NCBI GenBank assembly: GCA_015523565.1
Contig: WAKA01000169.1
Span: 1 to 19,068 of the forward strand
Reading direction: 5' to 3'
DNA length: 19,068 bases
From: Candidatus Heimdallarchaeota archaeon
GTDB taxonomy: Archaea > Asgardarchaeota > Heimdallarchaeia > Heimdallarchaeales > Kariarchaeaceae
Notes under the pieces: model-generated
What the model was told of the DNA's origin: nothing
What the model saw: only the letters and a program-made list of their open reading frames with translations
Database searches by the model: none
Translations under genes and position numbers: made by a program
Shown here: piece after piece, positions 14,818 to 14,934 of the stretch
How the letters are laid out: each line of letters begins with the position of its first letter
Numbering within the stretch: position 1 is the first letter of the stretch

Positions 14818-14934
14818 TCACTTTTCTTTGACGTCTGCCTCCTCCATTGCGAAGAAGTGATAAGCAAGGACGAGTCCGAGGGTTAGAATGGATACAAATA
14901 TGGAAAGATATTTGACAACGTTGAAATCGATCAC
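14818..14934 (-). CDS. 38-aa single-pass membrane microprotein, OST4-like
   Basis: Below the ORF-track cutoff. GTG 14934 to TGA 14818: MIDFNVVKYLSIFVSILTLGLVLAYHFFAMEEADVKEK. One hydrophobic helix and a charged tail. Fills the gap between TetR and the nucleotidyltransferase, ending 6 nt before the next ATG. TATA-like TTTTTTAT about 22-30 nt upstream. Confidence 0.75.
   Translation of the reverse strand: MIDFNVVKYLSIFVSILTLGLVLAYHFFAMEEADVKEK

Follow-up and report, generated by a model that had tools for sequence, protein, structure and literature searches.

A conserved 38-residue membrane microprotein of Heimdallarchaeia as a probable homologue of the eukaryotic oligosaccharyltransferase subunit OST4

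We have analysed a stretch of 19,068 nucleotides from Candidatus Heimdallarchaeota archaeon (contig WAKA01000169.1 of assembly GCA_015523565.1; hereafter the window), in which a microprotein gene lies between a tetR gene and a nucleotidyltransferase gene (Table 1). The window's RNA polymerase gene is most similar to those of Candidatus Heimdallarchaeota genomes; three of them fall in the order of the present genome, and genomes labelled Hodarchaeota fall in other families of the class, which places the present genome in Heimdallarchaeia. The 38-residue open reading frame proposed in the initial annotation is present, and we add its strand and its GTG start, which had been left unstated. A TTG is found in frame four codons 5' of the GTG, and the starts of the homologues fall at the position of the GTG. 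The encoded protein has one transmembrane (TM) helix at about residues 6–28, which ends in Tyr25-His26 (the YH motif) and is followed by an acidic tail. Its peak hydropathy is 2.18, compared with 2.22 for yeast Ost4 and 2.37 for human OST4. A T-rich, TATA-like box, which the initial annotation had also recognised, precedes the GTG by about 22–28 nt together with a purine-rich stretch, and this spacing is retained in the sister species G001. The box may be a leaderless promoter, the T-tract that terminates tetR transcription upstream, or both.

The nucleotidyltransferase gene starts 7 nt past the stop codon of the microprotein gene, and the two genes are probably co-transcribed. It also adjoins the microprotein gene in G001, and it is missing from that position in G002 and G003. 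The tetR gene adjoins the microprotein gene in G001, G002, G003 and G007, the two genes having changed places in G003 and G007; in all, this adjacency is seen in five genomes of the family in variable order (window 13978–15625; L071, L009).

Table 1. Features at the microprotein locus, candidate oligosaccharyltransferase (OST) subunits elsewhere in the genome, and related microproteins of other archaea
Feature	Location	Strand	Remarks
Ost4-like microprotein gene	14818..14934	(-)	38 aa; GTG start, TGA stop
Purine-rich stretch and T-rich TATA-like box	14955..14972	(-)	Leaderless spacing
TetR-family regulator	14984..15625	(-)	PF00440, E 3e-11; upstream neighbour, context only
MobA/CTP-transferase-like nucleotidyltransferase	13978..14811	(-)	Downstream neighbour, context only
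DC2/Ost3-like protein, 140 aa	L242:498-917 (G000:C139)		E 8.7e-6, below Pfam cut-off
Ost5-like protein, 73 aa	L243:1492-1710 (G000:C95)		E 4.7e-4, below Pfam cut-off
Two weak OST48_N matches	L245:1261-2421; L246:859-1914		Both also match GIFT-type families/domains
Microproteins of Bathyarchaeia and other Thermoproteota	L253:341-454, L257:1486-1611, L273-L300		Mostly 26-85 nt behind SWIM-like gene

The microprotein gene is conserved, single-copy and protein-coding, as follows from its conservation and from selection at the codon level. The reading frame and its YH motif are kept in relatives, and a profile search found a single strong copy in 46 of the 47 genomes of the order. Purifying selection is seen in a pN of 0.07 against a pS of 0.33 (15 pairs). 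In the comparison with G001, synonymous sites are near saturation (pS 0.79, pN 0.11) and the protein is 82% identical. Start and length are constant across the phylum although the neighbours vary. The short length, the GTG start and a size under the cut-offs of gene callers might suggest a spurious reading frame in the gap between the tetR and nucleotidyltransferase genes, but we consider this practically impossible, since it is refuted by conservation, both in the G001 comparison and in the constancy of start and length through neighbour turnover. Iterated profiles matched 188 of 400 Asgard genomes at E ≤ 0.02, part of these being chance TM matches; the members are full-length small reading frames and are found across most Asgard families. 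In the large families f19 and f20, which are probably Lokiarchaeia, the iterated Asgard profiles gave no convincing member, which is not proof of absence. Five genomes of these families (L302–L306) have a SWIM-like gene with no microprotein reading frame behind it. Several STT3 frames of f19 and f20 are long, at about 1200–1360 aa (L302–L306).

The initial annotation aligned the microprotein with yeast Ost4 and human OST4 in register from residue 1, and the identities that it claimed are exact, eight with yeast and seven with human. The yeast sequence that it gave is that of PDB 1RKL; PDB 2LAT shows the first 29 residues of human OST4. Leu21 and the YH motif are present in register with the initiator Met. 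The lack of Asp4 and Gly15, two residues of Ost4, was also described correctly, the microprotein having Phe4 and Ser15 instead. His26 is invariant among 29 sequences of its own class. In the pan-Asgard alignment of 53 sequences, Tyr25 is present in 43, His26 in 33 and Gly15 in 17, and Asp4 is not conserved among the Asgard members. In the Njordarchaeia group, Gly15 is present in nine of the ten rows, and members of the group combine it with the YH motif. The in-register BLOSUM score of the microprotein against yeast and human is the highest over 1064 other TM-bearing small reading frames and N-termini of the genome, none of which carries Tyr25-His26; because the reading frame was selected for its likeness to Ost4, this rank is weak by itself. 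Weak pairwise scores are to be expected in the Ost4 family, considering that a pairwise search between yeast and human OST4 gives an E of only 0.08. In family f5 (L104, L068, L118–L120 and L123; one genome labelled Hodarchaeota), Leu replaces His26, and its members are less Ost4-like than those of the Njordarchaeia group. Hodarchaeales are the proposed sister group of eukaryotes.

We propose homology with Ost4 because of intermediate sequences and predictions; the direct test against Pfam, with which the initial annotation would have checked its claim, fails. The Pfam Ost4 model (PF10215; gathering score 25 bits) did not match the microprotein and missed the locus in its own genome as well as in 83 genomes of the class, where nothing scored above the gathering score. 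The sole Pfam match of the reading frame, Get2_like (E 0.07), was rejected as a chance TM match. The best relative, P0014, is Njordarchaeia-like; its contig is archaeal, and the neighbouring genes are of Njord type. Its best Pfam match is Ost4 (E 1.1e-4, model positions 1–31) at 22.4 bits, which is below the gathering score, and no member reached 25 bits. Ost4 is likewise the best Pfam match of P0039 from the Njordarchaeia group (E 0.0012). The profile of the microprotein's own class matches the Njordarchaeia-group profile at 97.5% over 37 columns without gaps, and the latter has yeast Ost4 as its sole match in the PDB, gap-free from residue 1, at E 0.34. When the PDB was searched with the protein by itself or with profiles A1–A4, the matches were unrelated TM peptides only, and the pan-Asgard profile did not retrieve Ost4 there. 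Against 1.84 billion representatives, the pan-Asgard profile gave 48 matches, with no recognisable eukaryotic OST4 among them.

The Asgard-only profiles were built without eukaryotic sequences and were compared with nulls of 1063 TM decoys and composition-keeping shuffles. Yeast Ost4 was outscored by one of the 1063 decoys with the pan-Asgard profile and by none with the Njordarchaeia profile, and it stood above 99.9–100% of the shuffles. Human OST4 performed modestly, 1–3% of the decoys scoring as well (A4 and A2 profiles). Profile-to-profile comparison by hhalign, in which the eukaryotic side consisted of yeast and human OST4 only, gave 65.5% for the pan-Asgard profile (null maximum 16%) and 84.1% for the Njordarchaeia profile (null maximum 43%). 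In the ESM Atlas, the best match scored 0.88 with 204 of 256 features in common, a lead only by the rule of the tool for scores below 0.9, and nine of the ten best matches belong to the Ost4 family. Several tests thus point to Ost4, none of them being decisive by itself.

The genome has one STT3/AglB, encoded on another contig, and its closest solved structure is human STT3A (E 3.7e-94). The co-fold of the microprotein with this STT3, a check that the initial annotation had named, scored 0.78, and the best of three controls, which were not necessarily hydrophobic single-helix peptides, scored 0.00. Of 80 solved complexes, 58 pass the mark for this test, as do 2 of 110 mismatched pairs; these counts apply here only roughly, because our own alignments were used. 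Contact agreement between runs was at least 84%, and the pLDDT of the partner was at least 76. Because similar STT3-Ost4 complexes have already been solved, the pass may reflect memory, and we consider that it shows likeness rather than binding.

In the predicted complex, residues 14–31 of the microprotein are seated between the first and last helices of STT3, where Ost4 sits in yeast. When aligned with human STT3A, the STT3 regions with predicted contacts (32–59 and 472–495) prove to be its first and last TM helices, and the groove also includes the STT3 helices at 160–172 and 440–454. The best-defined predicted contacts of the microprotein include residues 18, 19, 21, 22 and 23, and most sequences of the pan-Asgard alignment have a small residue at position 18. 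In the model, the last STT3 helix is touched by residues 8–12 at its outer end and by residues 22–25 at its inner end. In yeast, the N-terminus of Ost4 is outside, in the lumen, and its C-terminus is cytoplasmic. The yeast protein fits between TM1 and TM13 of STT3, and its residues 18–24 are required for the subcomplex, which is destabilised by charged substitutions there (PMC7226087). In terms of gene position, the distance between the microprotein and STT3 genes is about 4 kb in two closed genomes, 13–50 kb in seven and 56–375 kb in three; these genomes are kin and not independent, so the proximity gives light support only. In the two closed Heimdall genomes (L053/L208 and L054/L209), the microprotein gene stands tail to tail with an RPA gene.

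From the sequence comparisons and the modelling, we consider it likely that the gene product is a Heimdallarchaeia homologue of eukaryotic OST4 that braces the membrane domain of STT3. The archaeal OST4 homologue suggested in the initial annotation is thus favoured by the conserved YH motif, by profiles that outperform random single-TM peptides and by the predicted interface with STT3. On the predicted topology, the N-terminus of the helix would be located outside, the YH motif and the acidic tail would be cytoplasmic, and the central and C-terminal part of the helix would fill the four-helix groove of STT3. By analogy with yeast, the peptide would serve as a structural brace and would help to recruit or hold a DC2/Ost3-type subunit, and the result would be a small multi-subunit N-glycosylation complex in the cytoplasmic membrane. 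The genome has weak matches to further OST subunits (Table 1). Of these, the two OST48_N-like proteins, possible WBP1 orthologues, were left unassigned in view of their matches to GIFT-type families. The Pfam models of ribophorin I and DAD1 gave no match in the genome, which is 90% complete, and this is not proof of their absence.

Of 251 sampled Thermoproteota genomes, Bathyarchaeia included, about 30 contain related microproteins; the sample yielded 38 matches, 32 of them within short frames. One member, among 57 clusters, is named as a Bathyarchaeota hypothetical protein. Of the 26 Thermoproteota loci that were read, 19 share with six Asgard families a SWIM-like gene directly upstream, and four more adjoin Lhr. 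In a control set of 121 genomes of the Methanolobus phylum, matches occurred only inside long frames, and no small reading frame was a member. The Thermoproteota profile matched the own-class profile at 93%, the pan-Asgard profile at 96% and the STT3 helices at no more than 3%; the first two values are partly circular because the seeds were found with an Asgard profile, and the shared gene order is independent evidence. Against eukaryotic Ost4, the same profile reached 2%, since His26 and Gly15 are mostly absent in the Thermoproteota members. An STT3 homologue is present in all five Thermoproteota carriers that were checked. We see an even chance that the Thermoproteota microproteins, which share the build and the position behind the SWIM-like gene, are OST4 orthologues that dock on their AglB/STT3, and that OST4 predates the Asgard archaea. 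If this is true, a two-subunit oligosaccharyltransferase would date to the TACK-Asgard ancestor, and the eukaryote-type YH motif would have arisen within Asgard archaea. OST4 would then not be an Asgard-only signature, and archaeal AglB might not always be single-subunit.

The main rival explanation takes gene order as its starting point. On the one hand, a same-strand SWIM-like gene lies 13–200 nt upstream in the six Asgard families and the 19 Thermoproteota loci mentioned above, and elsewhere Lhr or RPA adjoins the microprotein gene, so that in many lineages it stands in a conserved cluster of DNA-repair type and not beside glycosylation genes. The microprotein might then serve the SWIM-domain protein, the Lhr helicase or RPA as a membrane anchor or regulator, and would resemble Ost4 by chance. 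On the other hand, SWIM, RPA and Lhr are found on three other contigs in the present genome, the microprotein gene remains single-copy in the order despite its varied neighbours, and the five f19 and f20 genomes have retained the SWIM gene but show no such reading frame after it. Such a role also leaves the Ost4 matches and the STT3 co-fold unexplained. In P. syntrophicum, the genes for glycosylation are dispersed (PMC11284389). We consider this explanation very unlikely.

The microprotein could also belong, as an ancient small subunit, to a different membrane complex, such as the translocon, an ATPase or a respiratory complex; its likeness to Ost4 would then come only from its TM composition and from a short motif of an aromatic residue and His. 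Pfam scans of the members, which gave scattered weak matches to many unrelated single-TM families (E 0.005–0.3), are in line with this, as is the failure of the Thermoproteota profile on eukaryotic Ost4. However, no rival family comes up consistently from test to test, whereas Ost4 is the best match in Pfam (bridge members), in the PDB (Njordarchaeia profile) and in the Atlas; moreover, shuffles that keep the composition and real TM decoys score lower. We regard a subunit of another complex as improbable.

Considering OST4 homology as the preferred reading, we compared the microprotein with eukaryotic OST4/Ost4p (Pfam PF10215; PDB 1RKL, 2LAT, 6EZN, 6C26, 6S7O and 6S7T). These proteins are alike in having 34–45 aa, one TM helix and a gap-free register from residue 1 with Leu21 and Tyr25-His26, and the microprotein is predicted to take the seat between TM1 and TM13 of STT3 through residues 18–23. 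They differ in that the microprotein lacks Asp4, has Ser15 where part of its family has Gly15, carries an acidic tail, falls under the Pfam cut-off and would reside in the archaeal plasma membrane instead of the ER. Its predicted partner belongs to the same catalytic family as the single-subunit archaeal AglB of Archaeoglobus fulgidus (PDB 3WAK), which functions without accessory subunits, unlike the proposed pair of STT3 and microprotein.

The initial annotation held that OST4 had not been described in Asgard archaea. This is not the case, since Eme et al. (Nature 618:992, 2023; PMC10307638) report homologues of both Ost4 and Ost5 for most Asgard classes. By description, their claim is equal to the present one and the range is similar. 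The same paper treats the non-catalytic OST subunits as having no prokaryotic homologues outside Asgard archaea (PMC10307638), whereas the present family appears to extend into Thermoproteota. A 2026 structural-clustering preprint mentions OST48 alone. Asgard relatives of OST4 were already reported in 2023, and the apparent Thermoproteota range is new; no paper on this range was found in a search conducted largely without subscription journals. Our analysis adds sequences, a bridge to the eukaryotic family and a docking model to a published, thinly documented claim, and Asgard OST4 is part of the case for a pre-eukaryotic assembly of the multi-subunit ER glycosylation machine.

Two further observations concern other parts of the window. 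At 6340–9717 (-), a gene for a 792-aa two-module aldehyde dehydrogenase lies right behind a long deoxyribose-phosphate aldolase-like gene. At 18685–19068 (+), the gene for RNA polymerase A' is followed by a reading frame that is cut short by the end of the contig. It opens with a tandem repeat, in frame and about 70 residues long, which may be genuine or may have arisen in assembly.
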